Virus record (IMG/VR): IMGVR_UViG_2711768067_000013
Coordinates: 1-19,806 of that record
Reading direction: 5' to 3' (one strand)
Length of the DNA: 19,806 bases
From: a virus
Lineage: Duplodnaviria > Heunggongvirae > Uroviricota > Caudoviricetes
Shown here: positions 1 through 17,054 of the stretch, piece by piece
Layout of the letters: every line of letters begins with the position of its first letter
How positions within the stretch are numbered: position 1 is the stretch's first letter
Notes under the pieces: generated by a model
The model's database searches: none
The model's input: the letters and a program-made list of their open reading frames with translations, nothing else
What the model was told of the DNA's origin: nothing
Translations under genes and position numbers: made by a program

Positions 1-411
1 ATGCCTGCCCCCGTCGTCCTGATCCTTGCGGCCGGGCGTGGAGAGCGCTTTCTCGCCTCCGGGGGAAATACCCATAAGTGTATCGGCTGGCGTCAGTCCC
101 CGGAGGTTGCGCCTTATCGCTGGCCATTTGAAGAAAACGGGAGAACTTTCGACCTTGCGATTGAACCGCAGATTACGACTAATGATCTGCGTCTGATGTT
201 GAGGCTGGCTCTTGCCGGCGGAGGAATAACAATTGCCACTCAGGAAACTTTCAGGCCATATATTGAAAGCGGTAAGCTTGTATCGCTGCTTGATGACTTT
301 CTTCCACAATTTCCGGGCTTCTATCTGTATTTCCCACAGCGTCGCAATATTGCACCAAAGCTCCGCGCCCTGATTGACTACGTCAAAGAATGGCGGCAGC
401 AATTGGTTTAA
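1..411 (+). CDS. LysR-family transcriptional regulator, C-terminal effector-binding region (5' part lies outside the window)
   Basis: ORF runs from the window edge to TAA at 409-411. The translation (…FDLAIEPQITTNDLRLMLRLALAGGGITIATQETFRPYIESGKLVSLLDDFLPQFPGFYLYFPQRRNIAPKLRALIDYVKEW) has the usual LysR C-terminal pattern. Call is from recalled family signature, not a search. Confidence 0.6.
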   Translation: MPAPVVLILAAGRGERFLASGGNTHKCIGWRQSPEVAPYRWPFEENGRTFDLAIEPQITTNDLRLMLRLALAGGGITIATQETFRPYIESGKLVSLLDDFLPQFPGFYLYFPQRRNIAPKLRALIDYVKEWRQQLV

Positions 412-527
412 ATAGCTGCACCTGCACTGCCTGATGACAGAACAGTATTTTGATGAATTGCCAAGGTTACAATGGCACAAATGCGGCACAGGAGGAAACG
501 TGGTGTATTTAAATATGGGGTAACTCT

Positions 528-556
528 TTGATTTTAATGGTGCCGATAATAGGAGT
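528..556. repeat. Left direct repeat / candidate att site: 19-nt tRNA-Thr 3'-end core (538-556, tggtgccgataataggagt) plus ~10 bp of similar flank (ttgattttaa)
   Basis: Identical 19-mer recurs at 13601-13619, where it continues as a tRNA fragment; the upstream flank ttgatttt..taa is also shared with 13588-13600. The integrase gene starts ~140 bp to the right. Confidence 0.6.
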
Positions 557-698
557 AAAACACTCGATTAATCTCGTGTTAATGCCATCACCTACGACCA
601 TTACTAATTGATTGAATCTTATAGAAAAATCATCATTTTCTATGCGTCACAATCAATTTTCACATTACAAACGCTCCGACACTTTAGCCGGAGATTTT

Positions 699-1976
699 AT
701 GAGATACAAGCCTAACCAATACTTAATCTGTGATTCTTACGGTAACTACTATTTAAGGATCACGCTGCCTGTGTATATGCAGCCCTTTTTTGAAGGAAAA
801 AGGACGTTTGTCAGAAGTCTGCACACAAGTAATCTTCGTGTTGCACGTAGAAAGCGTGATCAGATTGCAGATGAATACCATTGCTTACGGGAGAGTGTTG
901 CCCCTGTAAACAGCACAATAGAAAACACGCTGGAACTGTTACGCAGTAAGGCTAAATACGCCAAAACAGCTACCAGAATGCAAGATACAGCGTCTTCGTG
1001 TCCGTCATTGCTTAAAATTCTTGAAATCTACCTGACAATTAACAGCACGAAGAAGAAGCCAGCCACTTTAGCTAAGGCAAGAAAAGCGGTAGAGATGTTT
1101 CTCTCCTACCGTAAAAAGCCTGATATTGCATTGCAAGATGTAAGCCGCACCACTGTTACAGGCTGGATTGAACACATGCAAAAAACTCTTTCACAACAAT
1201 CAATTGCAAATTATATCAGCCCAATGGCCCAGCTATGGGAATTAGCTTCATCACGTTACCACGATGCGCCAGAAAGGGCGCTCTCCCCCTGGCGAGGGCA
1301 TAGGCTTGATGTGGCACAAAGTAGAGAGAGCTACGAGGCATTTTCTAACAAAGAGCTATTGCAGGTGTTGCAAGTATTTTCCGGTAATTCAGCAGAAAAC
1401 AAAGAAATGATGGCTTTGTGTCTTATCGGTTTATATACAGGTATGCGGATCAATGAGATAGCAAGTCTCACAATAGACGATGTGAAAGAGATCGAAGGTG
1501 TGCTGTGTTTTGAAATCACACAGGGAAAAACGAAAGCTGCGGCACGTCTTGTGCCTGTGCATAGCCTTATCACTCCGTTGGTGTTGTCGCTGCGTGAAAA
1601 GCCTCACAATGGCTTTTTGTTCTATCACGCCAGCATTACAGAGCGTGCTGATGGTAAACGTTCCACGTGGCATACACAACGATTTACAAGAGCTAAACGA
1701 AAGGCTTTAGGGGAAAAGGGAACAGAAAGGAAAGTGTTTCATTCTCTGAGACACGGAGTAGCACAGCTTCTTGATCGAAATCAAATTCCAGAAGACAGGA
1801 TCGCCCTTCTCCTGGGCCATACACGCGGCAATACAGAAACATTCCGCACATATAGCAAAAATGCAGCTTCTCCAATAGAGCTTAAAAAATATATTGAGCT
1901 TTTACGCTACCCTGAAATAGAGAAAGGCTTATCAATCAATAAAAAATCAAATTTAAGGCGTAAAACAACGCTATAG
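699..1976 (+). CDS. int: Tyrosine-type site-specific integrase (phage/genomic-island type)
   Basis: ORF 612-1976 begins at TTG; the ATG at 699 follows a GGAG (688-691), and another in-frame ATG lies at 642. Catalytic-domain signatures are present: GMRINEI (Arg), HSLRHGVAQLL (His-x-x-Arg), LLGH, and TFRTYSK (Tyr). It sits beside the tRNA-derived repeat. Confidence 0.85.
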   Translation: MRYKPNQYLICDSYGNYYLRITLPVYMQPFFEGKRTFVRSLHTSNLRVARRKRDQIADEYHCLRESVAPVNSTIENTLELLRSKAKYAKTATRMQDTASSCPSLLKILEIYLTINSTKKKPATLAKARKAVEMFLSYRKKPDIALQDVSRTTVTGWIEHMQKTLSQQSIANYISPMAQLWELASSRYHDAPERALSPWRGHRLDVAQSRESYEAFSNKELLQVLQVFSGNSAENKEMMALCLIGLYTGMRINEIASLTIDDVKEIEGVLCFEITQGKTKAAARLVPVHSLITPLVLSLREKPHNGFLFYHASITERADGKRSTWHTQRFTRAKRKALGEKGTERKVFHSLRHGVAQLLDRNQIPEDRIALLLGHTRGNTETFRTYSKNAASPIELKKYIELLRYPEIEKGLSINKKSNLRRKTTL

Positions 1977-1984
1977 ATGTAATA

Positions 1985-2018
1985 AAGAGGCTTCAATATA
2001 GACTGATGCCTCTTTTAT
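1985..2018. terminator. Bidirectional rho-independent terminator between the convergent int gene and the 225-aa gene
   Basis: Stem agaggc (1986-1991) pairs with gcctct (2008-2013) around a 16-nt loop, followed by TTTTAT on the plus strand and an A/T-rich tract on the minus strand. Confidence 0.45.
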
Positions 2019-2056
2019 GATTATCTCGTTACAGAGCGTTTCATAGGCGTTTAAGG

Positions 2057-2734
2057 CTATTGTTTAAATACTGGCGTTACAACGTCTTGCCCTGGGCTTT
2101 TTTGATTTTTCTGTTCTGTTGTATTTACCTGCATTTTAACCTGTCCCCCTACAGATTTATTTGGTGCTGTTTTTACCGCAATTGCGCTTGTAGTTGCTTT
2201 AGAGACAAGACGGATTTGCTCAAAATCAAGAGTAAACAATAGGCTTTCGCTTGCTTCTTCTTCATAAGACATGCCAACTAACACAACGTTGTCATAATTT
2301 TTTAACTCAGTGACAAGTAGGAAAGGTTGGCGACTGTCCATCAACTGATTTAGGTATTCAAGCATAAGCATACGTCTATTGCCGTTAATTCCCGCATTCT
2401 TAATCATATCGGGATTGAGCTTCAATACGGTTTCAGAGATACGCCCCTGTAATGTGAACTTGTTATTCCGTATTTGAACATGATCACTAACTTCTGATCC
2501 TGATTCGACAGCATAGCTTGTAACGTCTGCATTTCTGCTAATTTTCGTCGATTCCACGCTATCAAATGATAATGCCTGGTAGTCATTGTAAGCAGCATTT
2601 GCACCACTGCCGAGGTTAGAGGCAATGATCGCAAAGCCGTTACCCCCTTTAGTTGTTCTACCGTTGCTATCGTTGCTTGTGCTGTTGATTTTCGCCTCAG
2701 TCGGGCGACCAATGGTTAACGGACCCATTGCCAT
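2057..2734 (-). CDS. Hypothetical protein (225 aa), last gene of the structural-like block
   Basis: ATG at 2734 with AAGGA about 9 nt upstream; 48 bp after the stop of the 613-aa gene. No recognisable catalytic motif. Confidence refers to coding status, not function. Confidence 0.5.
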   Translation of the reverse strand: MAMGPLTIGRPTEAKINSTSNDSNGRTTKGGNGFAIIASNLGSGANAAYNDYQALSFDSVESTKISRNADVTSYAVESGSEVSDHVQIRNNKFTLQGRISETVLKLNPDMIKNAGINGNRRMLMLEYLNQLMDSRQPFLLVTELKNYDNVVLVGMSYEEEASESLLFTLDFEQIRLVSKATTSAIAVKTAPNKSVGGQVKMQVNTTEQKNQKSPGQDVVTPVFKQ

Positions 2735-2781
2735 AATTTGTAATCCTTATTTAAGGGGGCTAAACAGCCCCACAGTGATGA

Positions 2782-4623
2782 TTAATAGGTTGACCCGCCT
2801 GACATAACACCCAGCGTTAATAGCTTGCTAAACTCAGCGGAGGATGCCTTTGATTTGAAGTCGATAAATTCGCTCAATCGTCCGGTGTCTGATTCGATAG
2901 TTAGCGGCACTTCTGCATTTACTTGTAATTCTGGATTGAAGTTAATAACAGGTGCAAAGGTGTAAGAAGGAGCCTTGAAAGCTTGTTGTGCTGCACTCTG
3001 TTTCAGATTTGCAATGTTTTGTCCTTCGAGACTGTATTGATTTACAGCCTGCGCCCCACCTACCGTTTCTTCTGGCATAAACCAGCTTTTAATAGTGTTA
3101 ACCAGGGAATTGCTGTTATCTGGCTTAATTGTTCCGGTGCCAGCGCCTTTATATTGATCAGGAGTGAGATTAGAAAGATTCTGCTTCATTCCTTCGTTAG
3201 ATAGTGGCGGTGCATCCCCTAAATTCTTCTGAATAGCTTCCGTCTTCTCGTCGTTTTTCATCAGCCAGTTGATTGTTTTCATTACGGCGTTAACCAATCC
3301 GCCGATAGCCTCGCCTAATTTGGTAAACATTGGCAGCATTGCAACCATGCTCTTTTTAAACTCTTCAATCACTTTCGGATCAAGAGATTTCATAAAGCCA
3401 TCAACAAAGGCGATCCCTTGTGAGTCAGAAAGCCCACTAAGTGCATTATTCAGTTCACGGAATTTAATAACGCTTTCCTGTTGTGCCTGCGTTACCCAGC
3501 GCCCTGATTCTCGTTGTTCTCGTGCTGATTGTTCCACTTCTTTAGCGGAGCGTGTCCAGTATTTAGAGGTGAGCATCAAATCATCAGCCAGATCTTCCAG
3601 ACGACTACCGATTTGTGCATCTGAATAGCCTTTAGCTACCATTCCCTGAACTGCTTTACTAACCAGACCAGCCGGATTATCAGCAAAGTCTTTTAGATCC
3701 TTTTTAGTTAGGAATCCTTCATTCATTAAAGTATTGATGCCGCTATCGCCGCCCTTCCATTCTCCTTTACCAGTTTTCTTATCAACTACATATTCAGCTT
3801 CATCATAAGATTTGGTTGCACGTTCACGCACATCTTTCATCTGATCGAGATACTTACGTTTACCTTGTTCGCCCATCATTGAATCAACGCCGTTTTTATA
3901 CGCCCATTGCTCAATATTGTTCATCTGGTTAACGTCTACACCGCCCAGCTTGGCACGGCTATACAATTCACCCAGCGTTTCAGCATTCGCAAAGCTGTTA
4001 GTAACAAATTCAGAGGCTTTGCTCATAGCCATATATGCAGCGCCAGCGCCTAAGCCGCCCAGCATAACAGCCGCAGCACCGCCGCCAATACTCCCGCTAC
4101 CCTTAACAGGTGCATAGGCTTTAGCGTGAGCGTTACGATTGCCATTAATCTTACGTTGTTGCTGTTGTAGGCGTTTCATTTGGCTATTCATACGTGCCAG
4201 ACTAATAGCGCCTCTTTCATATTGGAGGGCAATTTCTCTAGCCTGTGCAATAGCTTTATATTGTTCCGCTACAGAAAGACGGTGCAATGCGCTAATGCTT
4301 GCTCCAACGTCTAAAAGCTTTAATTCAGCCTTCTCTTTCCGTGCTGCCAGGGCTTTTTGTTCTCTTGCAACTACACGTTGAGCGGCTAATTGTGCTTTAG
4401 CATTGGCTTTATCTGCCTGTGCTTGCTTTTTAGCAATATCGTCTACGTCTTTTTTTGCTTTAGCGGTTGATTGTTTATGTGTCTTAACACGCAATTCTAT
4501 ATCTTTCACCGCCGCCATTTGTTTACGAAGTTTTTCTACTTCTGCTTTTGCTTTCTCTAATGATGGTCGGTTAACTTCGAAGGTGACAACGTTCGAGAGG
4601 CGTGCCACGTTTAGCTCTAACAT
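2782..4623 (-). CDS. 613-aa protein with an N-terminal K/A/E/Q-rich coiled-coil region (~160 aa) and a Gly/Ala-rich hydrophobic segment (GSGSIGGGAAAVMLGGLGAGAAYMAM); tape-measure-like architecture, function unproven
   Basis: Long ORF with ATG at 4623 and AGGGA upstream. The composition resembles phage tape-measure or internal virion proteins, but this is an architectural impression only. Confidence 0.6.
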   Translation of the reverse strand: MLELNVARLSNVVTFEVNRPSLEKAKAEVEKLRKQMAAVKDIELRVKTHKQSTAKAKKDVDDIAKKQAQADKANAKAQLAAQRVVAREQKALAARKEKAELKLLDVGASISALHRLSVAEQYKAIAQAREIALQYERGAISLARMNSQMKRLQQQQRKINGNRNAHAKAYAPVKGSGSIGGGAAAVMLGGLGAGAAYMAMSKASEFVTNSFANAETLGELYSRAKLGGVDVNQMNNIEQWAYKNGVDSMMGEQGKRKYLDQMKDVRERATKSYDEAEYVVDKKTGKGEWKGGDSGINTLMNEGFLTKKDLKDFADNPAGLVSKAVQGMVAKGYSDAQIGSRLEDLADDLMLTSKYWTRSAKEVEQSAREQRESGRWVTQAQQESVIKFRELNNALSGLSDSQGIAFVDGFMKSLDPKVIEEFKKSMVAMLPMFTKLGEAIGGLVNAVMKTINWLMKNDEKTEAIQKNLGDAPPLSNEGMKQNLSNLTPDQYKGAGTGTIKPDNSNSLVNTIKSWFMPEETVGGAQAVNQYSLEGQNIANLKQSAAQQAFKAPSYTFAPVINFNPELQVNAEVPLTIESDTGRLSEFIDFKSKASSAEFSKLLTLGVMSGGSTY

Positions 4624-4657
4624 GTTAATTGTTTCCCTGTATTATGATTGTTGTTTG

Positions 4658-4855
4658 TTATTGTTTTTTAGAACAGTAGTATGTAATTGCTTCAAAAGTG
4701 CTGCATCCAGTCTGAAACACACGCTGCCGCACATTATTTGCATCAATTTCTAAAAGGCGGCAAAGCGCCGATGTGTTTATAACTGATTCCTCGCTAATAG
4801 CTGCCAGTTCTTTTACAGATTTAAGAATTAATGCCTGTGAATTTTCTGTATTCAT
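4658..4855 (-). CDS. Hypothetical small protein (65 aa)
   Basis: ATG at 4855 with a purine-rich stretch upstream; lies between the 343-aa and 613-aa genes on the same strand. Confidence 0.4.
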   Translation of the reverse strand: MNTENSQALILKSVKELAAISEESVINTSALCRLLEIDANNVRQRVFQTGCSTFEAITYYCSKKQ

Positions 4856-5018
4856 TGGTTTTCTCTCACATATATATTTTTATTTGGTTTTGTAGACAGT
4901 AGAAAAACAAAAAGGGCAAAGAGATTCGTTACTGTATTTGCGCCTACAGGTTAGTTAATCCCTTTACCCTTAGCCCCGATTATTTTCAGACGATGGGGAA
5001 TCGTCTATTAACGCTTTA

Positions 5019-6050
5019 TTACGCAGCAGATCCGAAGATGATAGCTTGCGGAATGTTGTTTACTGGCAGATAAGATGTCTCAGTAACCACAGATGGGAAT
5101 TGGAATTCATCCTTGATTAGATATTGGTGATGTAACACGGCATCTTGACCTAACTCAGCATGACGCACACCAACGCCGCTATGAAGCTGGTAACACTGTG
5201 CCGCTTTATCCATTACCGGAACAATTGCGAAACCGTTCTCTCCGATGTGAGCAACAATCTCAGGAAACATTGACACATCAATAGCAGTGATCCCGCCAAT
5301 CTGGAAAGAGTCATAGGCTGGGTTAGAATCAACCATACGGGTAAACAGGGCCGTAGCACTCGCATCACCTGCATATTTCACCATGTCACTGATCAGCGGG
5401 TTAGATGACAAACCATCAGCAGCAGCGCCAGCAGCAAAGATAATTACACCAGTTCGCTTTGCAGCAAGAGCAGACCCCAGCTTTTCACTCTGTAAGCGCA
5501 CCGCTTTACGAATAGCAAGGAACGGGTTAACAGTAGTCGATGCAAAGTCGATAGCGGGTACCGTGGTTTTAGCCTGACCGTCGAGGAAGTCGAGATCACC
5601 TTGTCCGGCATATTCAGATTCAACTTTCAGTCCCAGCAGCGCGGTAATCAGATCCACTTCAACACGGTTTGCGTGTGAACGGTAATGAGCCTCAGAGAAA
5701 TCATTAACCGCTACCAGCATAGCATCAGAACGGTTTGGATATTGGCGGCTGTATTGTTCCAGGTCACGAGAAGTAACAGCGTTAATACTGCCGACGTGTT
5801 TCATCTGGAAAAGTTTGTTTGACCATTCCTGACGTTTAGAGGCGTTCCAGTCGCTTTGAGCGTAAGGCGAGGTTTCCCCAGCTACCTGCACAAACTGATC
5901 AATCAGGTCGGTAAGAAGAATGCTGTTTTCTGTATGATATTGCACATCGAACAGATCGAGATTAGTAATCAGGGTATTAAGTGCATTCTCATAAGCAAAT
6001 GGAGTTACTACCGCAGTATTAACACCAAAATATGTTGATAAATCATTCAT
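5019..6050 (-). CDS. 343-aa hypothetical protein, candidate major virion structural protein (capsid- or tail-tube-like); function not established
   Basis: ATG at 6050 with AAGGAAAA 8 nt upstream, and only 14 bp after the upstream 127-aa gene. A stem-loop follows the stop (4988-5006). No enzymatic motifs; the call rests on size and gene context. Confidence 0.6.
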   Translation of the reverse strand: MNDLSTYFGVNTAVVTPFAYENALNTLITNLDLFDVQYHTENSILLTDLIDQFVQVAGETSPYAQSDWNASKRQEWSNKLFQMKHVGSINAVTSRDLEQYSRQYPNRSDAMLVAVNDFSEAHYRSHANRVEVDLITALLGLKVESEYAGQGDLDFLDGQAKTTVPAIDFASTTVNPFLAIRKAVRLQSEKLGSALAAKRTGVIIFAAGAAADGLSSNPLISDMVKYAGDASATALFTRMVDSNPAYDSFQIGGITAIDVSMFPEIVAHIGENGFAIVPVMDKAAQCYQLHSGVGVRHAELGQDAVLHHQYLIKDEFQFPSVVTETSYLPVNNIPQAIIFGSAA

Positions 6051-6064
6051 TATTATTTTCCTTG

Positions 6065-6448
6065 TTAAGTCGTAGGGATCGCAAGTTCTTCATAACCAGC
6101 AATTACAAAGCCGAGAGATTGCAGTTTTGCAATAACACTTGCCTTTTCCATGCTGTTAAATTCAATCCCATCTTCAGCCAGAATAACGAAAGTAGGATGT
6201 GCAACCACTACGCTTTCCTGTCCTTCATAAGCCGGTTCAACTACTACGTGAGCAATATCAGATGCGGTTGTTGCTTTGGTGCCATCGGCTTTCAGCAAAG
6301 CCCCGACAATAAGATCGTCAGTGAGAGGTGAAGCCAGTTTGACGAGGCGATCTTGCAGCACTGGATCAGCAGCGTAAGCTACTACCTTACAGCGTGAACG
6401 GGAGTTATCCGCATTCACTGCTTTTAATTTTCCATATGGGTTAGCCAT
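6065..6448 (-). CDS. 127-aa hypothetical protein, possibly a head-decoration or tail-terminator-like partner of the 343-aa protein
   Basis: ATG at 6448 with AAAGGAAAA upstream, an RBS context almost identical to that of the 343-aa gene; 4-bp gap from the upstream 65-aa gene. Confidence 0.55.
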   Translation of the reverse strand: MANPYGKLKAVNADNSRSRCKVVAYAADPVLQDRLVKLASPLTDDLIVGALLKADGTKATTASDIAHVVVEPAYEGQESVVVAHPTFVILAEDGIEFNSMEKASVIAKLQSLGFVIAGYEELAIPTT

Positions 6449-6452
6449 AAGA

Positions 6453-6650
6453 TTATTTTCCTTTCAGTTGTTTAATTTTAGATTTAAGGGCATCAGCAAG
6501 ACTAACCGCATCAGCCGATTTAAATAATTGAGCAGTGGTAGAACGAAGACTTTCGGGAGTAACTCCCAACAGTGCGGCAACCTTAATGAGGTTTTCATCA
6601 CTAACAATCATCGTTTCCCCGTCTTTGCTGATAATCATTTCTTGTTTCAT
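6453..6650 (-). CDS. Hypothetical small protein (65 aa from the ATG at 6650; the track ORF extends to a TTG at 6692)
   Basis: ATG at 6650-6648 with AGGAA 9 nt upstream; first gene after the terminator-like hairpin at 6682-6731. Confidence 0.45.
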   Translation of the reverse strand: MKQEMIISKDGETMIVSDENLIKVAALLGVTPESLRSTTAQLFKSADAVSLADALKSKIKQLKGK

Positions 6651-6681
6651 AAATAACGTTCCTGTTAGTGCCAGACAAATA

Positions 6682-6731
6682 AAAAGCCCCAATGCCGTAA
6701 GAGGTTAATTCTGACCAGCAAAGGGGCTTTA
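6682..6731 (-). terminator. Terminator-like hairpin immediately upstream of the structural-like block (minus-strand sense)
   Basis: AAAGCCCC and GGGGCTTT arms (6682-6690 and 6724-6731) around a ~33-nt loop, followed on the minus strand by TTTTTATTT. The large loop makes this a weak call. Confidence 0.3.
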
Positions 6732-7326
6732 ACGTGCGGGCAATTACATAATTGATAAGTTAAACTATAAGAGGATTAAACATATCAGCAAATACACTTT
6801 TTAAATATACTTGATGATATGCTTAAAGGGTGAATAGATACTCCTGAAAACATGCTCTTAGGAAAACATGCGGAATCAATCAGGAATATCTATTCGGGGC
6901 GCGGTGGCCAACCGCTATCTTTCATGGTGTGGATGCACCAGTCAGATTTTAAGGAATCACTATTCCAATCTACTCACAGATTAAATTTTTAATAATGATT
7001 AACTACACCAACAGTAATCTACCGTTTCAGAAAATCGTTTTTACAACCAAAGCTTATAGATCCGCATTCTATAAAACCCGTTTTGCTATCAATATTTCCA
7101 AAGGTTATTGCACAATTCTTAGCTAAACTCTCTACTTGCGGCTAACGCTACGCAGATGATAGTTTTTTGACAACAACTTAATAGATTATTCTGTTACTAA
7201 CTTCTGTCATTAAATAAGAGTTTAATGATGTTAGTAAATAGTTATAAAATATAACTATCAGTGTAAGGCTCTTTAATGTTTTCGGACAAAATAAGGAGCT
7301 TTAGGATAAGCATAGATGAAAATAAG

Positions 7327-7364
7327 AGCGGGAAGGGCAAGGAGATAACACCTACCCGCTTTTA
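7327..7364. terminator. Bidirectional terminator-like hairpin in the 930-bp spacer
   Basis: agcgggaagg (7327-7336) pairs with cctacccgct (7351-7360) with one mismatch; T-tracts follow on both strands (TTTTAT plus; CTTATTTTC minus). It lies ~270 bp downstream of the 102-aa gene in minus sense. Confidence 0.4.
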
Positions 7365-7633
7365 TCAAAATTAAGCACAATGCCTAACAACATTCATCAA
7401 CACAACGTAGAAACAATCAACAATCAAAGAGGGAGTTATGATTATTCTAAAACTTCTTGAGGGGATGGAAGGTAATATTTGTTAGAGGTTAATGCCACTC
7501 AACCCTTGAGGCTATCACCTTCCATATGCAGGGATTTATGACAGTAGAAGGATTAACACCAGTCAAAACCTTTTTATCTACCCCTAATATCATTATATAA
7601 TGAAATTGTTATAAATGCAAATGATTTTCATTA

Positions 7634-7942
7634 TCACTTAGAAGAAATAGCACTTTTTGCTAAATCATCTACTAATTGCTGAATCTCTTCACTTGCAGCC
7701 TTTAACGTGCTGGCGCTGCTGCTGATGGTTTGAGTGCACAGCCTGGCATCGTCCTCTGATAGCTCTAAATCGCTCACCAGAGAGATAAAATCGTCAAGGC
7801 TTACATTCACCTTCATTAAGCTAATAACGCATTGAGAGAGCGTGTAATCGCATAAATCTGAATAGGCTTGATTTATTCTTGTTTGTAGTGAGATAGTCAG
7901 ATCTAAAAGTTGTTCCATTGCATTGCTAATATCTTCTTCCAT
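7634..7942 (-). CDS. Hypothetical acidic protein (102 aa)
   Basis: ATG at 7942 overlaps the stop of the upstream 67-aa gene (TAATG), suggesting translational coupling. Confidence 0.5.
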   Translation of the reverse strand: MEEDISNAMEQLLDLTISLQTRINQAYSDLCDYTLSQCVISLMKVNVSLDDFISLVSDLELSEDDARLCTQTISSSASTLKAASEEIQQLVDDLAKSAISSK

Positions 7943-8145
7943 TATGCGGCTTCTCCTTGTAATGCATCATTAATCATATTCAATACGATGTTAAAAGGTG
8001 TCTTGAGCGTCAGCACTTCATCACGATAACGCTCTAATGCTTCGTAGTCTTCTGTTTCTTTTGCCAGTCGGATTAACTCAGCATAGTTTTTTGCATCAGA
8101 CAGGATCATCTGAAATAATTGTGTTTCCTGTATATGGTCGATCAT
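7942..8145 (-). CDS. Hypothetical protein (67 aa)
   Basis: ATG at 8145 with AAGGAA 6 nt upstream. Confidence 0.5.
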   Translation of the reverse strand: MIDHIQETQLFQMILSDAKNYAELIRLAKETEDYEALERYRDEVLTLKTPFNIVLNMINDALQGEAA

Positions 8146-8162
8146 TGTTGTTCCTTTTATTT

Positions 8163-8549
8163 TTAGTTTGAACGTTTGTTAGATGCGAGAGTGTCGATCA
8201 GGTGCTGCATCAGATCTGTTTCTGTAACGCCGCCTACCTGATTGTTGAAACTATTAAAACCGATATAGTGCCTGTAGCTGGTAAAATTTAACAGCTGCCA
8301 TTTCTTTAATGTGCCAGGTTCTATAATCGTTGTCTTTCTTGTTCTGGGTTTGAAATACACACCATCACCCATTGATTGAATAATTTCTAATTCTTCGTTT
8401 GTAAGTGGTGGGCTGTTAGATTCTAAAATGAAGATTATCTCTTCCCCTGGAATTTCGTTATTGGTGTGTGTCGGTGGACGTTGTCTTGTTGAATTGAAGT
8501 TACTGTTTTTTTCAATACGTTTTAAGTTGTTCTTTTTCTTTCTTCCCAT
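8163..8549 (-). CDS. Hypothetical protein (128 aa), basic N-terminus
   Basis: ATG at 8549 with AGAGGGA upstream. Confidence 0.5.
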   Translation of the reverse strand: MGRKKKNNLKRIEKNSNFNSTRQRPPTHTNNEIPGEEIIFILESNSPPLTNEELEIIQSMGDGVYFKPRTRKTTIIEPGTLKKWQLLNFTSYRHYIGFNSFNNQVGGVTETDLMQHLIDTLASNKRSN

Positions 8550-8645
8550 TTTCCCTCTTTTTATGTGGATTATAAAAACTGAATGCCATAGTTACGATGA
8601 ATATCGCCATAAATGCATTTGCCATATGTATTGCCCGATCTGTTG

Positions 8646-8903
8646 TTATTGATTGTTTGTGATAAACAATTCAAAATCTTTGTTTAATTTCAAAAGACGA
8701 AATGTAGTGTGGTTAATCCCTTCATAATCCAGCACACCGAACGATGTAAAATGATTTACGTGTTGTGCGCTGTAGCCGCCTAAACTACAAAAGCTAACCA
8801 CTGTCGGTGGTGAAAACTCTATTTCCAAAATAGCTTTTAAAATGTTGTATCCGCTTTCAGTTATTTCAATAGTTTTGTTTCCTATAGTGATGTTATAAGT
8901 CAT
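8646..8903 (-). CDS. Hypothetical protein (85 aa)
   Basis: ATG at 8903 with AAGGAG 6 nt upstream. Confidence 0.5.
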   Translation of the reverse strand: MTYNITIGNKTIEITESGYNILKAILEIEFSPPTVVSFCSLGGYSAQHVNHFTSFGVLDYEGINHTTFRLLKLNKDFELFITNNQ

Positions 8904-8912
8904 TTATTCTCC

Positions 8913-9587
8913 TTAGAATGGTATTGAATCGTATATTTCACTTTTTTCTCTTAGAGATATTATCAGATCGTGAAAAGCCTGTTTCTCAAGATAGATATTC
9001 TTTGAATCTAATGCTCGTTTTACAAAATCTTCTGTTTCTTCGTGCGGTGGCTTCTTGTTATCAAGGGAAAGAAGCCAGTTAAAAATCTTTTCCGGGAACT
9101 CTGATTCCTGTATTTCTTCTTCAACGATGATTTCTGAAACATTCAATATTTCATTAGATTCGTTTTCTTTCTCAGAAGGATCAGGTAGTGATGACTCTCT
9201 AGGGGGAGTAATATGTGCATCTGTGAGAGGTAGCGCACGTAATTTTAATGGACGTTTTGGGATTCGTTCTCCGACCTCTTCTAAAAGACCGATTTTAATC
9301 ATAAGACCAATCAATTCATTAACTGTCTTACGGCTACAGCCACAAACTTTACTTAACTTCGTTTGTGTTTCAAAACATATCCCCCCTGATTTCTCCCAAT
9401 CTGAAACATAGCAATATAATTTTTGCATTTCTGCACTAAACTTCGCTTTTCCATCCTCAATATTTGAGGAGTAGATGAATTCAATCTCACAAAAGTAGTG
9501 TGGTATATTCAAAGTTCGGTCTTTAATTTCTCCTGTTTGTTGATCAACATACTGGTATTTTTCACGAATCAATTTAATTTTAGACAT
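8913..9587 (-). CDS. 224-aa putative DNA-binding protein (winged-helix-like segment SRKTVNELIGLMIKIGLLEE); candidate regulator or replication-initiator-like protein
   Basis: Track ORF 8913-9644 starts at GTG; the ATG at 9587 has a strong AAGGAG 8 nt upstream. The C-terminal half is acidic. Function is inferred from the motif only. Confidence 0.5.
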   Translation of the reverse strand: MSKIKLIREKYQYVDQQTGEIKDRTLNIPHYFCEIEFIYSSNIEDGKAKFSAEMQKLYCYVSDWEKSGGICFETQTKLSKVCGCSRKTVNELIGLMIKIGLLEEVGERIPKRPLKLRALPLTDAHITPPRESSLPDPSEKENESNEILNVSEIIVEEEIQESEFPEKIFNWLLSLDNKKPPHEETEDFVKRALDSKNIYLEKQAFHDLIISLREKSEIYDSIPF

Positions 9588-9640
9588 TAGAATTATCTCC
9601 TTATAAATCACGCTTAATGCGCTACTAAAGTGAATGAGGA

Positions 9641-9808
9641 TCACTTACCCTTTTTTTGTTTGATGTTCTCTGCTGCTTCAGTAATGATTTCTAACATCAA
9701 ATCACTGACCATAATTTGCCTTTTCTTGGCTTCAGCAAATAAAATCTTGAAAATTTCAGGGTCAACGTGTAGGTAAGTGCGTGGAATTGGTTTCTTGGTT
9801 TCGCTCAT
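9641..9808 (-). CDS. 55-aa ribbon-helix-helix-like small protein (MSETKKPIPRTYLHVDPEIFKILFAEAKKRQIMVSDLMLEIITEAAENIKQKKGK); absent from the ORF track because it is under 60 aa
   Basis: Hand-translated: ATG at 9808-9806 with AGGAGAAGGAG upstream, TGA at 9643-9641. A predicted strand followed by two helices fits Arc/CopG-type repressors. Confidence 0.45.
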   Translation of the reverse strand: MSETKKPIPRTYLHVDPEIFKILFAEAKKRQIMVSDLMLEIITEAAENIKQKKGK

Positions 9809-9829
9809 AGTTTTCTCCTTCTCCTGTTA

Positions 9830-10012
9830 TTATTCTTTCTCTGCTCCTGCCTTACGCAGTTCATCAATAATTTTTAGTGCATCGTCAAAACATTTTTCAC
9901 GCTCTGGATAACCACAGCGTCGCGCTGTGTTCCTGTTCATCCTTACTTTAAAACGATTGATCTCACCACGTTTCCAGGCTTCAACTACATCCTGGGGAGT
10001 GAAATACTTCAT
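9830..10012 (-). CDS. Hypothetical protein (60 aa), first gene of the minus-strand array
   Basis: ATG at 10012 with AGGAGG 7 nt upstream; 21 bp before the RHH-like ORF. Confidence 0.5.
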   Translation of the reverse strand: MKYFTPQDVVEAWKRGEINRFKVRMNRNTARRCGYPEREKCFDDALKIIDELRKAGAEKE

Positions 10013-10134
10013 TAATTAACCTCCTATTCTATTTGGTTAAAAGAAAAAACACCTTGCAAGCCTTGTTGGGCTTCAAAGTGCGGTGCATTGGTTTAATTAC
10101 TTAGAGGATAAGAATGTTTTCTGTCCCTAATATT

Positions 10135-10163
10135 ACTTTACCACGACTAAAAGCTTTTGTCAA
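10135..10163 (-). promoter_or_regulatory. Candidate sigma70 promoter for the minus-strand array (TTGACA, 17-bp spacer, TAAAGT)
   Basis: Minus-strand TTGACA is the reverse complement of 10158-10163; TAAAGT is the reverse complement of 10135-10140. Motif match only. Confidence 0.3.
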
Positions 10164-10324
10164 CCCCTATCCATAAAAATATTGATCATTTTCAGTGTGT
10201 TATAATTTTTCTTAGCAATTCGTGCTCTTACGGGTGCTCCTATTCTTCCTTATTCTCTAAAACGCTCTAAAACGCCCTCTGACGAGGTTTTGATAAATAC
10301 AATACATTCACTTATGTAGAGGCT

Positions 10325-10780
10325 GTTTAGCTCGCCAGAGGCTTATTTAAGGGGCTTATTTTGTATTTGTTAGGTATATGGGAAGATGATGATAGATAAA
10401 ATCTAATTTCAGACATCTTATAAAATACCTGTAAAGCTCCTCAGAAGCTCTATAACGAGCTAATCTATTACCGCTAAGTGTTTCCCTGCCTTATATACGT
10501 TTAGCTCGCCTACGGCTTGATTTAAGCGGTAGAATCTTATTTAACCTTCAACTACTAAAACCATTCTTTCTTTTTTGTTTGTTGTTGGTTGTTGTCTGTG
10601 TCTATGTGCTAACATCGCTAACGCGTAGCACACAAGGTTATTGCACTCGTCAGAGTATTGCACAATAGATTTTCTCTTAAATAGATTGATGATCGTTAGA
10701 TTGGCGTAAGCCTCATCAATGGAACTATTGAAGCGCACAGCGCAAGACTATTTAGCCTTACGCAAGCCGTAGGCTATTTG
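10325..10780. repeat. Repeat family in the noncoding region: two direct ~28-31-bp copies (10325-10352, 10499-10529) and one inverted, itself palindromic copy (10749-10780)
   Basis: Copy 1 gtttagctcgccagaggcttatttaagg; copy 2 gtttagctcgcctacggcttgatttaagcgg; copy 3 reverse complement contains GCCTACGGCTTG. A TTG/TGT-rich tract (about 10565-10610) and several CTAAC pentamers lie between copies 2 and 3. Confidence 0.5.
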
Positions 10781-10961
10781 CACATAGTAGATTACATATT
10801 CGTTGTGAGCGGCATTAGCGAACATATATCTACTAACTAACATCAACAAACAAAAACTATGTGTTATGACAAGCAGTCTAACGACTAACACTCTAACTTG
10901 TGCAAGGTTCTGGCGAATGCCAATAGATTAAGGGATAGTCAAAGACTCCCTAACGGGTATA

Positions 10962-11045
10962 CCTATAATTATTCTTATAAAGATAAAAAAGAATTATATT
11001 ATATAGTTTAATAGTTAGTTTTATTATTAGTATTATAGATGTTAG
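10962..11045. other. Very AT-rich tract next to the iteron-like array; candidate DNA-unwinding element
   Basis: About 85 bp of almost pure A/T directly upstream of the palindrome array. Confidence 0.35.
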
Positions 11046-11053
11046 TCTTATTG

Positions 11054-11224
11054 TGTAACCTTTCGTTACAACCAATCATCTGCCGATGTAACGTATCGTT
11101 ACTACCGATGTGTAATATCGTTACATTCAATAATTAGTCTATGTAACGAATCGTTACTACAAAATTTCTTACAGAGAGTATTTCAGATAGCTGAATGTAA
11201 CCCATCGTTACATCCATCGTTACA
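11054..11224. repeat. Iteron-like array: five palindromes with a TGTAAC / GTTACA core (11054-11070, 11087-11103, 11111-11125, 11142-11158, 11196-11212) plus an extra half-site (11216-11224); two units form a tandem 22-bp repeat (11083-11126)
   Basis: Read directly, for example TGTAACctttcGTTACA, GTAACGtatCGTTAC, GTAACGaatCGTTAC and TGTAACccatcGTTACA. Could be a replication origin, a recombinase res-like site or a repressor operator. Confidence 0.6.
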
Positions 11225-11661
11225 TCCATTTATCACATAACATCTGTGCAATGATCTTCTAAAAGTGTTTCTTACTATCAAAAATTAAACATCTAAAACA
11301 GGCTTAAATTCAATGTAATTGATGATTAATCCCTGTGTAATTCCTACGTAAAAATTCAATGAAAAGTAGCTTAAAAGTGCAATTCTTACTTTCTTCACTT
11401 TTACATCACTTTCGCAAAGCCTTGTGTAATGCGGCATATAGCGCATCACTGCAAAATTGTTGCTCAATAAACGTTCTATCATTTGTCGAACAAGTTTTCT
11501 TTAATGCAACAAAAAATTATTTTTTCAAAATAAACACACCATTTAATAGCTTGCTAATTTTACCAAAACGTAACTACATGCTTCTCATGCAAGACGTGTA
11601 GTGATAAAGCAGGCTAAATCACCACACTAAAAACCTTCGAATTTCGTAGTGAAAAAAGTCC

Positions 11662-11691
11662 TTTACACACCTAATCAACACGATCAATAAT
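11662..11691 (+). promoter_or_regulatory. Candidate promoter for the serine recombinase (TTTACA, 18-bp spacer, AATAAT)
   Basis: Motif match ~35 bp upstream of the ATG at 11727. Confidence 0.3.
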
Positions 11692-11726
11692 CACTACACA
11701 CAAATCAACACAGAAGGAAAATGAAA

Positions 11727-12278
11727 ATGGCTAATATTGGATACATTAGGGTATCGACTGTGCAACAAAACACAGACCGTCAATTAGCTGGAGTAACTCT
11801 TGATAAAGTCTTTGAAGATAAAGCGTCAGGCAAGAACACTCAGCGCCCACAGTTTGAGGCAATGATGAACTATGTGCGGGAGGGTGACGTGTTACACGTC
11901 CATAGTATTGATCGCCTTTGTCGTAATACAGCCGACCTTCTGGCAACGGTTGAGCAATTAACAGAGCGCGGCGTGTCTGTGCATTTCCATAAAGAAGACT
12001 TTAAGACAGGGAAGAACTCTCCCGCAGGGAATATGATGCTCACAGTGCTTGCAGCAGTGGCACAAATGGAACGTGAAATGATGCTTGAGCGGCAACGTGA
12101 AGGGATCGCCGCAGCTAAGGCCGCTGGGCGTATAGCAAAACGTGGTAATGGAAAAGCAATTGATCGAGCAGGAATTGCTGCCGCTCTCGCGAATGGTGGA
12201 TCAATTCGGAGCGTAGCAAAAGATTTCAGTGTCAGCACACAGACGGTGCAACGTATCAAGAAAGAGCAGGAAGCGTAA
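11727..12278 (+). CDS. Small serine recombinase (resolvase/invertase family, ~183 aa)
   Basis: N-terminus MANIGYIRVSTVQQNTDRQ carries the resolvase catalytic-Ser motif; a C-terminal helix-turn-helix-like region (SIRSVAKDFSVSTQTVQRIKK) follows. The ATG at 11727 is better spaced from the AAGGA than the ATG at 11721. Confidence 0.85.
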   Translation: MANIGYIRVSTVQQNTDRQLAGVTLDKVFEDKASGKNTQRPQFEAMMNYVREGDVLHVHSIDRLCRNTADLLATVEQLTERGVSVHFHKEDFKTGKNSPAGNMMLTVLAAVAQMEREMMLERQREGIAAAKAAGRIAKRGNGKAIDRAGIAAALANGGSIRSVAKDFSVSTQTVQRIKKEQEA

Positions 12279-12618
12279 TGCCTCCTGATATTTGAGAATT
12301 GTCGCTGCGTGGACCTGACGCCGCTGATCTTCTCGTTAAGCGATGATCACGTATGCGCCGATTTCAGAGAAAAAGACAGTAACTGAACTCACTATGAAGG
12401 CTAAACGCATCTTTACACTTGATGAAAACGTTCAAAAAACAACCTAACCCCAAAATTCAACAAATTGCAACACATTGTTTTTAAAAGAAAATTAAATCTA
12501 CATCAAATATTGGTTGACGTAGATTGAGGTGAATAGTAGACTATTAGGGTAAATTACCACCCTTGCAACATCATTTAATGCATGTTCTAATCTTCCTATC
12601 GTAAAACCGGAGGAAGTT

Positions 12619-12777
12619 ATGCATTTACTTTCAAAACATCTTCACACTATTCACTTTCTCGTTATTGATGTATTCGTTGTGGCTATTAGTTACCGCATTT
12701 GCATCGCTTCCAGTGAAGAGATGGACGCTGTTGCAATTATTGCTCAAGCAATGGCGATGTTAACTAAACGACTTTAA
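12619..12777 (+). CDS. 52-aa small hydrophobic protein (MHLLSKHLHTIHFLVIDVFVVAISYRICIASSEEMDAVAIIAQAMAMLTKRL); not in the ORF track
   Basis: ATG at 12619 with GGAGGA 5 nt upstream; contains a predicted membrane-like helix. Confidence 0.4.
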   Translation: MHLLSKHLHTIHFLVIDVFVVAISYRICIASSEEMDAVAIIAQAMAMLTKRL

Positions 12778-12843
12778 TAATTTCACTATCAGGTGCATAA
12801 ACACATCTTTGATCGCTGGATGTGTTATGCGCCTACTGGTGGT

Positions 12844-12996
12844 TCAATCCTTAAGCCATTTCAACTCACTAAGGAGTTTTCTTTCTTCGTTCTCTCGCTG
12901 TTTACGCTCTAGCCAGGCTTTTCCCTCTGGCGTAGACAGGAACTTACGAGCGTGAATCTTGCGGTTATTACGTTTTATAGCTGCAATGTTTTTCAT
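12844..12996 (-). CDS. 50-aa highly basic small protein (MKNIAAIKRNNRKIHARKFLSTPEGKAWLERKQRENEERKLLSELKWLKD); not in the ORF track
   Basis: Hand-translated: ATG at 12996-12994 with GAGG upstream, TGA at 12846-12844. Convergent with the 52-aa ORF. Confidence 0.4.
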   Translation of the reverse strand: MKNIAAIKRNNRKIHARKFLSTPEGKAWLERKQRENEERKLLSELKWLKD

Positions 12997-13600
12997 CGTG
13001 TGCCTCTGTATTCATATGAAAATTAACAAGTTACATACTACACAGGGAGACTACGCATAAAACACAATACAAGTAAAGATACATTTTCAAGACAATAGGA
13101 GCCATAAAGCGCCTTTGATGGTTATACCAAAAAATAAGCGCCGTAGGCGTATCCACTAAAAGGGCTTTTTCACAAAAGCTATGAAGTCTTAGCAGTTCTT
13201 CTCTTATCAGGCACCCGTTGTACTCCGGTGGACGAAACCGTGCTAGAGCTTGATTCTTTCCCGATCAAGTTAGGTTTTGAAGAGGTGGGCTTTGATCCAC
13301 TATTGCACTTAAAACTCTTCCCATCATTTAGCCTGTTTATCCTCTGCAACGTCTCACGACGTGTAGCATCATTGGACACCGCGCCAGGTGTGGAACATCT
13401 TGCTAAGAGTTTTGGTAGAAGGTTTAGAGACGGTGGCACGTCTTCCAGCTTCAAAGGAACTTGTTACGAGGTTGAGCCTGGGAACTACTCGCCCATACGT
13501 GTTACACTACCAAAGCCCATAACAACGTATAGGCGTTTGTAAGTGATAACAGAAGATACAATTTCTTAGAGAAGTTAAGCTAAGTTATTGATTTTCTTAA

Positions 13601-13646
13601 TGGTGCCGATAATAGGAGTCGAACCTACGACCTTCGCATTACGAAT
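13601..13646 (-). tRNA. Truncated tRNA-Thr (CGU anticodon) 3' fragment, 46 nt (anticodon loop through T-arm, acceptor 3' strand and CCA); att-site remnant, not a functional gene
   Basis: Reverse complement reads ATTCGTAATGCGAAGGTCGTAGGTTCGACTCCTATTATCGGCACCA, with the GGTTCGA T-loop and CCA end; sequence diverges from tRNA after 13646. As I recall it, this matches the 3' part of E. coli thrW. Confidence 0.7.
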
Positions 13647-13951
13647 TATAAGAATCCGCTTCTAATTCAAAGCATTACCCCATCAACACTGCGCTCACAC
13701 GTCCCACCACATCAAAACATGTAAAGCCTTGCAAGCCATTGCGAGGCCTTATGTGTCTCAGTTTTGTCCCACCTTGTATTACGACTTACATAGCCAATGA
13801 AGATAAACGTGACGACAAACGGCGCAGCAGTCTTCTTTTCCTTCATACTTTCCCCACCCAGCATGCATACCTTTATGCCATAACTGAAGTTTATGTCTGT
13901 TATGAGCGAAAAGCAGACATTACACTAAATTATTTAGGTTTACTTTTATCA

Positions 13952-14824: not shown

Positions 14825-14928
14825 CTCACCCACTCTATAAACTGATTATCCATATAAACTACATTATCATTTTTAACTGCTCAACATAGATTAACATAGC
14901 GCGATGCTAACAGTGTCAACTCCTGGCA

Positions 14929-14950
14929 CAGGGCTGTTGTTGCAGCCCTG
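14929..14950. other. Perfect 8-bp palindrome with 6-nt spacer (CAGGGCTG ttgttg CAGCCCTG) between the recombinase stop and the nuclease-ZnF gene
   Basis: Read directly; no flanking T-tract on either strand, so probably not a simple terminator. Confidence 0.5.
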
Positions 14951-14956
14951 ACAACC

Positions 14957-15559: not shown

Positions 15560-15595
15560 ACTCAAATCTCCTGCAATGTGGGAGATTTGAGTATG
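15557..15595. promoter_or_regulatory. Perfect 15-bp inverted repeat with 9-bp spacer (CATACTCAAATCTCC tgcaatgtg GGAGATTTGAGTATG) covering the recombinase Shine-Dalgarno and start codon
   Basis: Arms 15557-15571 and 15581-15595 are exact reverse complements. In the minus-strand mRNA the hairpin would sequester GGAG and AUG. Confidence 0.5.
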
Positions 15596-15765
15596 GTTGT
15601 CCCTTATGAGCAAATCGCAGACGTAACATCAAGTTCATAGCTACCCTGGAGCACCTTATTATCCTGTATAACGATAAGTTGGGAAGCCAGTGGCCTCACA
15701 GTGTCCCCAAGATGGTGGTGTCTCTGCACCAAAGATGCGCTAGTTCAAATGTTAGTAAATATAAT

Positions 15766-16677: not shown

Positions 16678-16925
16678 TTGTTAACTCCCAAGCGTTGAGA
16701 TATTTTTATATCTGTATTGTGGGCTTATTATAAGCGAGTGTAATTATAATATCATACTAACAGACACAACTTCCGCTTCTGGTACATAGCAGACCAGAGA
16801 CACTGGCGTAAAGCCATGGAGGATCGGTGGGAGGAGGTAAAAATCCTCTCATGCAAAAAATACGCAAAATCGATAACAGTTGGAAATCATTCAATACTCG
16901 CACTATCGGAAGTTCACCAGCCAGT

Positions 16926-16958: not shown

Positions 16959-17054
16959 GTTTCGAGACCGCTCCAATCATCAAACGAAACATAAAATTAA
17001 TTCACATTATGAGGAAAAGTATCTTTTTTATACTATGTAAATTCAAAGGCTTAG

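Follow-up and report, generated by a model that had tools for sequence, protein, structure and literature searches.

Why does a stretch of viral DNA without an obvious tail carry a gene with the architecture of a tail tape measure protein (TMP)? The question is raised by the IMG/VR virus record IMGVR_UViG_2711768067_000013, of which positions 1 to 19,806 (the window) were analysed here. The longest open reading frame (ORF) of the window, at 2782-4623, encodes a 613-amino-acid (aa) protein, which a preliminary description made from the letters alone had called tape-measure-like. Judged by homology, this protein is a tail TMP of the Stephanstirmvirinae (phi92/phAPEC8-type) phages and a new, divergent member of that family. 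Its gene lies on a 13.06-kb integrative island, which in our assessment is probably a satellite of virulent phi92/phAPEC8-type myoviruses (~148 kb) whose TMP and tube initiator would build chimeric tails.

Homology of the 613-aa protein to phage tape measure proteins

The PHROG family phrog_16051 'tail length tape measure protein' matched aa 154-611 of the 613-aa protein with E 2e-31. Residues 1-648 of the TMP of phage phiWec188 (BDU13174, 651 aa) aligned with residues 1-611 at 26% identity (E 5e-42), and phi92 gp134 (PDB 21vq_V) matched with E 1.8e-20. In the cryo-electron microscopy structure of phi92 the trimeric TMP is gp134, and its C-terminus sits in the baseplate (PMC13450770). When 50,697 phage records were searched with tblastn, 134 matched; most belong to Escherichia phages, including named Phapecoctavirus and Justusliebigvirus, and some are annotated with a tape measure protein. 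The family is small, with 68 representatives at 50% clustering among 1.84 billion proteins, and its full-length members are 578-668 aa long. Scans of Pfam, NCBIfam and PADLOC gave no match to the protein. The tape-measure-like architecture can now be stated as homology to phage TMPs. The earlier remark that a ~400-aa domain has no recognisable motif holds for Pfam and NCBIfam and fails for PHROGs. It had also been called short, and it is indeed shorter than the phage TMPs (651-660 aa), but by 38-47 aa (6-7%) only.

The TMPs of the Stephanstirmvirinae, such as phi92 gp134, PHB05 gp126 and phiWec188 BDU13174, are homologous to the island protein over their full length. Both share an N-terminal stretch of ~35 aa (MLE[LI]N...N.VTF.V), a charged helical region, a Gly/Ala hydrophobic segment, a conserved central core and a C-terminal docking segment, and in both the tube initiator gene follows directly downstream. 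In the 613-aa protein the conserved N-terminal 35 aa are followed by a K/A/E/Q-rich helical region, the Gly/Ala segment at aa 175-200, the core at aa ~206-455 and a docking segment of the Phapecoctavirus type at aa ~551-613. Overall identity to the phage TMPs is 26-31%, unevenly spread. It reaches 34-49% in the N-terminal 35 aa, 29-30% in the core (aa 206-455) and 46% between the C-terminal ~60 aa and Phapecoctavirus. The hydrophobic segment and its surroundings are the least phage-like part (9-18% identity), with 17 extra residues in the phage TMP, and the length deficit (613 versus 651-660 aa) falls in the charged helical region. A divergent allele of a sister island (L006) has 633 aa, is 26% identical to the TMP of the window and ends in a C-terminus of the Justusliebigvirus type. 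The two types of C-terminus suggest docking ends specific for the genus of the helper phage. Unlike the phage TMP genes, the island gene sits on a 13-kb chromosomal island without sheath, tube, chaperone, hub or fibre genes.

The coordinates first given for the gene are right; it lies on the minus strand, with its ATG at 4623 and a TAA stop at 2782-2784, and the plus-strand frame of the same interval is interrupted by many stops. An AGGGA Shine-Dalgarno-like motif is located ~11 nt 5′ of the ATG. The ratio of nonsynonymous to synonymous substitution rates (dN/dS) between island alleles is 0.13-0.23, and hundreds of near-identical homologues in the databases keep the length of 613 aa, which indicates a maintained gene and no chance ORF. 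The helical N-terminus and the Gly/Ala segment of the preliminary description were both found: K, R, E, D, Q and A make up 60% of aa 1-160, which contain one Pro and two Gly, and the string GSGSIGGGAAAVMLGGLGAGAAYMAM lies at aa 175-200. The segment is moderately hydrophobic, its Kyte-Doolittle 19-residue maximum of 1.41 at aa 182 falling under the usual transmembrane cut-off of 1.6. A further hydrophobic stretch is present at aa ~425-448. An AlphaFold2 model built on a 37-sequence alignment has long helices at aa 19-169, among them one of 70 residues (H42-111), with a predicted local distance difference test score (pLDDT) of 81-95. In the same model the Gly/Ala segment (170-207) is non-helical and of low confidence, a helical core at aa ~208-396 is confident, and the C-terminal third is of low confidence. 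Foldseek searches of the PDB with this model returned non-specific helical matches only (best E 0.24), an uninformative result that is expected for a TMP whose homologue is resolved at the C-terminus only. The assignment of 2782-4623 (minus strand) as a TMP gene thus draws on PHROG and tblastn matches, full-length alignment, phi92 gp134, the AlphaFold2 model and dN/dS.

A non-phage identity has been proposed in databases, where PGAP labels the alleles of two genomes 'flotillin family protein'. A flotillin-like coiled-coil membrane protein would share the K/A/E/Q-rich helical region and the hydrophobic segment. We give this identity practically no credence, since the label is ruled out by the PHROG 16051, phiWec188 and phi92 gp134 matches. 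No Pfam or NCBIfam family matched the protein, Band_7/flotillin included; the homology found is to a phage family, over the full length of its TMPs, and the gene has a fixed place beside a tube initiator. Low-complexity coiled-coil similarity is the simplest explanation of the label.

Tube initiator and capsid genes

The gene that begins 47 nt downstream of the TMP gene (2057-2734, minus strand) encodes a tail tube initiator, a Dit-like baseplate protein of 225 aa, according to Pfam, phi92 gp135 and synteny. The protein matched Pfam Dit_like PF21821 (E 1.6e-27), phi92 gp135 (PDB 21vq_N, E 2.5e-54) and further chains named 'tube initiator'. Its identity to Phapecoctavirus proteins is 53%, within a range of 47-62% for phage tube initiators, and the two genes are arranged in the same way in phages PHB05 and phiWec188. 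In phi92, gp135 is the hexameric tube initiator, which sits on the hub around the C-terminus of the TMP (PMC13450770). The locus had been described as an island with no obvious tail; this is correct in that no sheath, tube, hub, wedge or fibre gene is present, but the adjoining tube initiator was overlooked. A Dit-like gene follows the TMP gene in every related locus that extends far enough, so that the gene is conserved together with its neighbour. Between the TMP stop and the tube initiator start, at 2745-2781, there is a GC-rich hairpin (GGGGCT-gttt-AGCCCC), which may be an attenuator setting the ratio of TMP to tube initiator.

The 343-aa gene at 5019-6050 (minus strand) is, on the evidence of sequence comparison, a divergent major capsid protein (MCP) gene of the lambda-E / HK97-fold type. 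In hhalign the 343-aa protein aligned with Phage_cap_E-positive island alleles and phage MCPs over 274 columns, with a probability of 96% and E 4.9e-9. Alleles of sister islands at this position matched Phage_cap_E itself (E 4e-18) and aligned over their full length with the MCPs of phAPEC8 and PHB05. An N-arm motif, LITNLDLFDVQYH, is common to the 343-aa protein and the phi92-type MCP (12/20 identical), and a weak match to PHROG 29 was found. A single-sequence AlphaFold2 model was uninformative (mean pLDDT 30), and the call rests on hhalign and on the Pfam-positive sister alleles. Co-occurrence with the 343-aa gene, which had been suggested as a check on the TMP gene, was found throughout: in all related islands that were annotated or gene-called, a gene the size of an MCP gene stands at that position.

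The 127-aa gene at 6065-6448 (minus strand) is a probable capsid cement/decoration protein gene, mainly from its position and size. It has the size and place of the phage cement gene directly upstream of the MCP gene, as in PHB05 and as in phi92, where the protein is gp123 (PMC13450770). The 127-aa protein is 25-27% identical to the sister-island alleles; against the phage decoration group hhalign gave a probability of 26% and E 7e-4, BLAST was not significant, and a weak PHROG head-decoration match had E 0.07.

In PHB05 the genes are ordered cement, MCP, head-completion, neck, sheath, tube, chaperone, and then TMP and tube initiator. The island has the first two and the last two of these in the same order, and none of the intervening or outlying ones. 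Among the island ORFs of at least 55 aa in 562-13,596, scanned with Pfam and PHROGs, no portal, terminase, neck, sheath, tube, baseplate hub or wedge, protease, connector or lysis gene was recognised.

Boundaries and mobility genes of the island

The island is bounded by a 28-nt att-like direct repeat derived from tRNA-Thr, with copies at 534-561 and 13597-13624 that are identical at 26/28 positions. Their spacing of 13,063 bp gives the length of the island. The left copy contains 19 nt of the 3′ end of tRNA-Thr (thrW), and the right boundary (13597-13646, minus strand) joins the repeat to a 46-nt truncated 3′ part of tRNA-Thr; ARAGORN found no complete tRNA in the window. Just inside the left boundary, at 612-1976 on the plus strand, lies a gene for a tyrosine integrase (Pfam Phage_integrase E 3e-17, Phage_int_SAM_5 and DUF6538; PHROG 1 E 1.5e-32). 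This ORF is read from a TTG, and RefSeq homologues start ~87 nt later, giving 425 aa; related genomes annotate the gene as tyrosine-type recombinase/integrase.

A Rep-like winged-helix protein is encoded at 8913-9644 (minus strand). It matched Pfam HTH_36 below the cut-off and several PHROG 'replication initiation' families, and it probably starts at Met20, position 9587 (MSKIKLI...). A repeat search revealed an iteron array at 11054-11216, composed of at least five copies of the semi-palindrome TGTAACGnATCGTTAC with spacings of 22, 33 and ~55 nt, within a 1.7-kb ORF-free region. These iterons are the likely candidate for the replication origin of the island. A small serine recombinase of the resolvase/invertase type, 185 aa long, is encoded at 11721-12278 on the plus strand (Pfam Resolvase E 1e-38, with a C-terminal helix-turn-helix).

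Distribution, reassortment and circular relatives

Matches to the island occur in 565-629 of 5,426 complete E. coli genomes (~10%), with the capsid-tail module in 565; the module of E. coli 2016C-3878 (NZ_CP029747) is 99.4% identical. The carriers span many lineages, including Shiga toxin-producing E. coli (STEC) and O104:H4; a genome collection with one genome per species gave a single E. coli locus. The same architecture was found at tRNA-Thr and at tRNA-Gly, where the integrase is a different one, and one record has it next to what is annotated as tRNA-Ser. The capsid module (small ORF, cement and MCP) and the tail module (TMP and tube initiator) reassort independently among islands. Sister island L005 combines the same tail module with a different MCP, and L006 the same MCP with a different TMP and tube initiator.

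Eleven further TMP homologues, 86-88% identical, lie on contigs of at most 13.2-13.85 kb. Five such contigs (Logan/NCBI), which come from several sequencing runs, were examined and found to be circular permutations of one another, ~13.6 kb long and without an integrase. A terminal overlap of 30 nt, the length expected of a circle in a k=31 assembly, is present in three of the four that are full-length. These circular relatives carry the same structural block and a 492-aa helicase-like protein, and most have a superinfection-immunity gene of the T4 Imm type beside the tail module (Imm_superinfect PF14373; phrog_1039 E 3e-22). None of the complete plasmid records matches them, and no true plasmid of the plasmid database carries the element.

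DNA shared with Stephanstirmvirinae phages

The structural homologues of the island all come from Stephanstirmvirinae-type phages, with records of ~130-160 kb. Phages of this type are strictly lytic. The non-structural half of the island was compared with phage genomes by blastn, and a 625-nt stretch at ~9196-9820 proved 95.5% identical to Justusliebigvirus inny (MN850601.1, region 1789-3124); phage muut shares 240 nt at 96.7% identity. The stretch comprises the 5′ part of the Rep-like gene and two small ORFs. In inny the corresponding gene product, inny_184 (gp184), is a chimera of 367 aa. Over its first 131 aa it matches the N-terminal DNA-binding domain of the island Rep-like protein at 88% identity; a second HTH_36 domain comes next, and the C-terminus is an endonuclease domain (phrog_681 E 3.9e-18) that matched Pfam MUG113 at the cut-off and T5orf172 with E 0.025. 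The nuclease Odn of phage ICP1 joins an N-terminal domain like that of RepA of PLE, a satellite from Vibrio cholerae, to a T5orf172 nuclease, and it cuts the iteron-bearing origin of the satellite (PMC8263062). By its domain order inny gp184 looks like an anti-satellite nuclease of the Odn type, and the island iterons are its possible target.

Just 3′ of the resolvase gene, at 12282-12364, blastn located an 83-nt non-coding element that is ~81% identical to mostly unannotated sequence in ~80 Phapecoctavirus-type genome records. In several of these records the phage counterpart lies within a few hundred nt of the record ends; in phage WPEC4 it occupies 273-357 and crosses the border of a 328-nt sequence that occurs identically at the two ends of the record. 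The element is 79-98% conserved in sister islands. We regard it as a candidate for a cis-signal derived from the helper, for packaging, replication or regulation. Taken together, the inny-like stretch and the 83-nt element indicate that island and phage DNA meet in the same cells, and they suggest that the phage has cause to attack the island. In the ORF-free region of the circular relatives (L008), 43 nt at 1027-1069 are 88-91% identical to another non-coding site in ~37 phage records, mostly of Phapecoctavirus-type Escherichia phages; with E 3e-6 to 1e-4 this match is weak but fits a pattern of helper-like cis elements.

Proposed life cycle and alternative explanations

As is generic for satellites, the island has its own integration and replication functions and an incomplete virion set, with homologues of four virion proteins only. 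Homology, synteny, mobility signatures, selection and DNA exchange with phages are read from the sequences; induction by a helper, incorporation of the TMP, shorter tails and small capsids we infer by analogy. In the proposed cycle, infection by a helper would cause the island to excise and replicate. A trimer of the island TMP and a hexamer of its tube initiator would then nucleate on the hub, spike and wedges of the helper, with the Phapecoctavirus-type C-terminal ~60 aa of the TMP docking in the helper baseplate. Tube and sheath of the helper would polymerise around the satellite TMP until its N-terminus is reached. In phi92, 24 tail rings are built on a 659-aa TMP (PMC13450770), which corresponds to ~27 aa per ring. 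The contractile, chimeric tail would therefore be ~1-2 rings, roughly 6-7 nm, shorter than that of the helper. The capsid would consist of island MCP and cement protein on the portal and packaging machinery of the helper. When the particle infects a cell, the TMP would be ejected before the DNA, and its Gly/Ala segment may aid in crossing the envelope, as is assumed for phage TMPs. By replacing the helper TMP and tube initiator the satellite would divert helper baseplates, and a TMP of its own would free it from any attack on that of the helper. Experiments on V. cholerae PLE and phage ICP1 have demonstrated this logic.

Several points weigh against this proposal. The island MCP is only ~20-24% identical to the helper MCPs, so that co-assembly with the portal, scaffold and protease of the helper is not obvious. 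No terminase small subunit or capsid-size factor was recognised in the island, and no homologue of a tail assembly chaperone (TAC) was found in it with Pfam, PHROGs or BLAST against phage ORFs. A divergent chaperone may be among the small island ORFs; with none recognised between the MCP and TMP genes, that of the helper would be needed. In the circular relatives the 83-nt element was not detected. Only a small difference in tail length (6-7%) is predicted, and we infer the helper relationship itself from homology and DNA exchange. Finally, TMP and tube initiator could serve interference and not transfer.

This last possibility can be taken further. The TMP, the tube initiator and perhaps the MCP might be dominant-negative look-alikes that poison tail or capsid assembly of the phage, the island itself never being packaged. 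The conserved N- and C-terminal ends of the TMP, and the tube initiator at 47-62% identity, are close enough to phage proteins to interact with them, and neither portal nor terminase nor TAC was recognised. Blocking of helper tail assembly by satellites has a precedent (PLE11 Rta; PMC12987554), and that a phage carries a nuclease seemingly directed against the island implies harm to the phage. However, a decoy would need neither a full-length TMP under purifying selection along its whole length nor MCP and cement genes in phage order. Integrase, att repeats, Rep-like gene, iterons and ~13.6-kb circular relatives are the hallmarks of an autonomous mobile replicon, the island carries helper-like non-coding DNA, and PADLOC found no match for any protein of the 13-kb island. 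Interference alone, though plausible, is unlikely; interference and transfer coexist in PLE, so the explanation overlaps with the satellite proposed here.

We hold it still less likely, and frankly speculative, that the TMP is specialised for entry, its hydrophobic segment forming a channel in the envelope where TMP-dependent entry of the helper is blocked, for example by superinfection exclusion. In its favour, the protein departs most from the phage TMP in and around the hydrophobic segment, and the circular relatives encode an Imm_superinfect protein beside the tail module. The island of the window has no Imm-like gene, the co-inherited partner of the TMP is an assembly protein, the tube initiator, and the PLE TMP has a demonstrated role in assembly and transduction. 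That the genes are functionless leftovers of a decaying cryptic prophage is improbable in the extreme. The thrW region does accumulate elements in tandem, a second, unrelated remnant following at 13.6-18.4 kb, and most island genes are annotated 'hypothetical'. Yet the only phage relatives found are of the Stephanstirmvirinae type, of ~130-160 kb, and the 12-13-kb gene set is intact in hundreds of genomes, at tRNA-Thr and tRNA-Gly sites and with a different integrase at the latter. The dN/dS of 0.13-0.23, the reassortment of modules and the circular forms likewise argue against decay.

We thus return to a satellite that builds chimeric tails. Somewhat less firmly, but still on balance, we propose that the islands make up an unrecognised and common E. 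coli satellite family that parasitises phi92/phAPEC8-type myoviruses. It would be a second, independent PLE-like system, with its own MCP and cement protein as well as TMP and tube initiator, which phages counter with Odn-like nucleases made from a satellite Rep domain. A literature search found no description of the island, nor of any satellite of Stephanstirmvirinae.

Other features of the island and the window

Just upstream of the TMP gene, at 4658-4855 (minus strand), a 65-aa ORF occupies the position of the small-ORF/chaperone region of the phages. It had no Pfam, PHROG, NCBIfam or PADLOC match, and BLAST found no similarity to the phage ORFs upstream of the TMP gene; in sister islands it is 89-97% conserved, whichever capsid or tail module is present. 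The first ORF of the structural block (6453-6692, minus strand) encodes 79 aa from a TTG, or 65 aa from the RefSeq ATG. It is conserved together with the capsid module, matches no Pfam or PHROG family and shows no resemblance to the phage gene of 371 aa that precedes the cement gene. According to the ORF list and a promoter/terminator scan, the block is preceded by an ORF-free region of ~940 nt (6693-7633, minus strand), with a sigma-70-like site at 7621-7592 (minus strand) at its 5′ end and a GC hairpin at 6901-6916. The hairpin is contained in a 60-nt block (6906-6964) that is 82% conserved in the circular relatives. The region may be a long leader or a regulatory RNA; an Rfam scan of the whole window at gathering thresholds found no family.

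The island further holds several small genes of no assigned family. Database names are misleading for many of its genes: TMP alleles go under 'flotillin family protein' or 'hypothetical', PHROGs and phage records list the tube initiator as 'tail fiber protein' or 'endolysin', and some small island genes bear the names 'transporter', 'ACP S-malonyltransferase' and 'ABC transporter ATPase' in related genomes.

Beyond the truncated tRNA-Thr, positions 13647-18400 hold a second, unrelated island remnant. It encodes a 293-aa protein that matched PADLOC PDC-M01B (E 6e-15) and contains a DnaJ-type zinc-finger region. Genes for a truncated tyrosine integrase (14957-15613), for a restriction nuclease like Mrr (15766-16677) and for a GIY-YIG protein of the LEM-3 type (17100-17924) are also present. 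The remnant is followed at 18568-19676 by a C-terminal tail-fibre fragment (Collar domain) and a tail-fibre assembly protein (Caudo_TAP). These two belong to the remnant of another prophage, one with an inversion cassette for tail fibres (pinE/tfaE in a related genome), and have no relation to the TMP island. At the other end, positions 1-411 encode the C-terminal part of a LysR-type regulator, which is annotated as a pseudogene fragment beside paoD in related genomes and marks the outer edge of the thrW island-accretion region. The thrW island of STEC may correspond to CP-933H / Sp1.

Comparison with known satellites

Satellite-encoded TMPs and chimeric tails were shown recently in one system, that of PLE and ICP1, and PLEs have been called the first satellite family known to manipulate tail assembly (PMC12987554). 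If the present proposal is true, E. coli would possess a similar system that is abundant, tractable and directed against phi92/phAPEC8-like phages. By diverting their assembly, the satellite could affect the growth of these phages, which are under study for therapy and biocontrol, on carrier strains, including O104:H4. Hundreds of annotations as 'hypothetical protein', 'phage baseplate protein', 'flotillin family protein' or 'tail fiber protein' could also be corrected.

Every PLE has genes for a TMP and a TAC of its own, and in some there is a further one for the baseplate hub protein BhuB (PMC12987554). Virions of PLE11 contain the PLE TMP and BhuB and lack the ICP1 counterparts. Their tails are shortened by 10 nm, which fits a TMP with 95 aa fewer, and deletion of the PLE tmp gene lowers transduction by 96-99.9% (PMC12987554). 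The island resembles the PLEs in being a satellite-type island of a large virulent myovirus, with its own TMP and an adjacent small baseplate-core protein. Compared with its helper counterpart, the TMP has a low identity in both (~20-30%) and the baseplate protein a higher one (41% for PLE, 47-62% for the island). Both also have a TMP that falls short of the helper TMP in length, and in both a chimeric Odn-like gene stands on the phage side. Host and helper family differ, the host here being E. coli, the integrase of the island is a tyrosine recombinase, and no TAC was recognised. A further difference is that the island encodes its own MCP and a protein at the cement position, whereas PLE virions use ICP1 capsid proteins (PMC12987554), which according to PMC10945586 are remodelled by TcaP into small PLE capsids. 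The resemblance is functional and architectural and was set by published descriptions, with no claim of membership; function is experimental in PLE and predicted here.

The EPIPs, prophage satellites of Mycolicibacterium, likewise are small genomes with an MCP and a TMP, and a TMP-dependent change of tail length has been proposed for them (PMC12822802). They differ from the island in gene set, in having a temperate siphovirus-type prophage as helper, and in tails that are longer, not shorter (PMC12822802). The cf-PICIs are integrative E. coli islands with their own MCP, and some have been reported with putative tmp genes (PMC12987554). As stated by their authors (bioRxiv 10.1101/2022.09.08.507074), cf-PICIs encode all proteins to make and fill their own capsids. 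They take only tails from their helpers, whereas the island encodes tail-core proteins and has no recognisable portal, protease, terminase or connector gene, which sets it outside the definition of a cf-PICI. The gene set of the island, a capsid shell and a tail core without portal or terminase, thus differs from those of PLE, cf-PICI and EPIP, and if the proposal is true it raises the question of how helper portals and baseplates accept a foreign MCP and TMP.

On the phage side, inny gp184 is comparable to Odn. Both join the DNA-binding N-terminus of a satellite Rep protein to a domain of the GIY-YIG superfamily (T5orf172/MUG113-like), and in both cases the satellite has semi-palindromic iterons. 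They differ in that inny gp184 has an extra HTH_36 domain, and in that its copied domain is closer to the satellite (88% at the aa level, 95.5% at the nt level) than that of Odn is to PLE1 RepA (42% at the aa level). If the comparison is true, the Odn strategy would have a second natural example in inny gp184.

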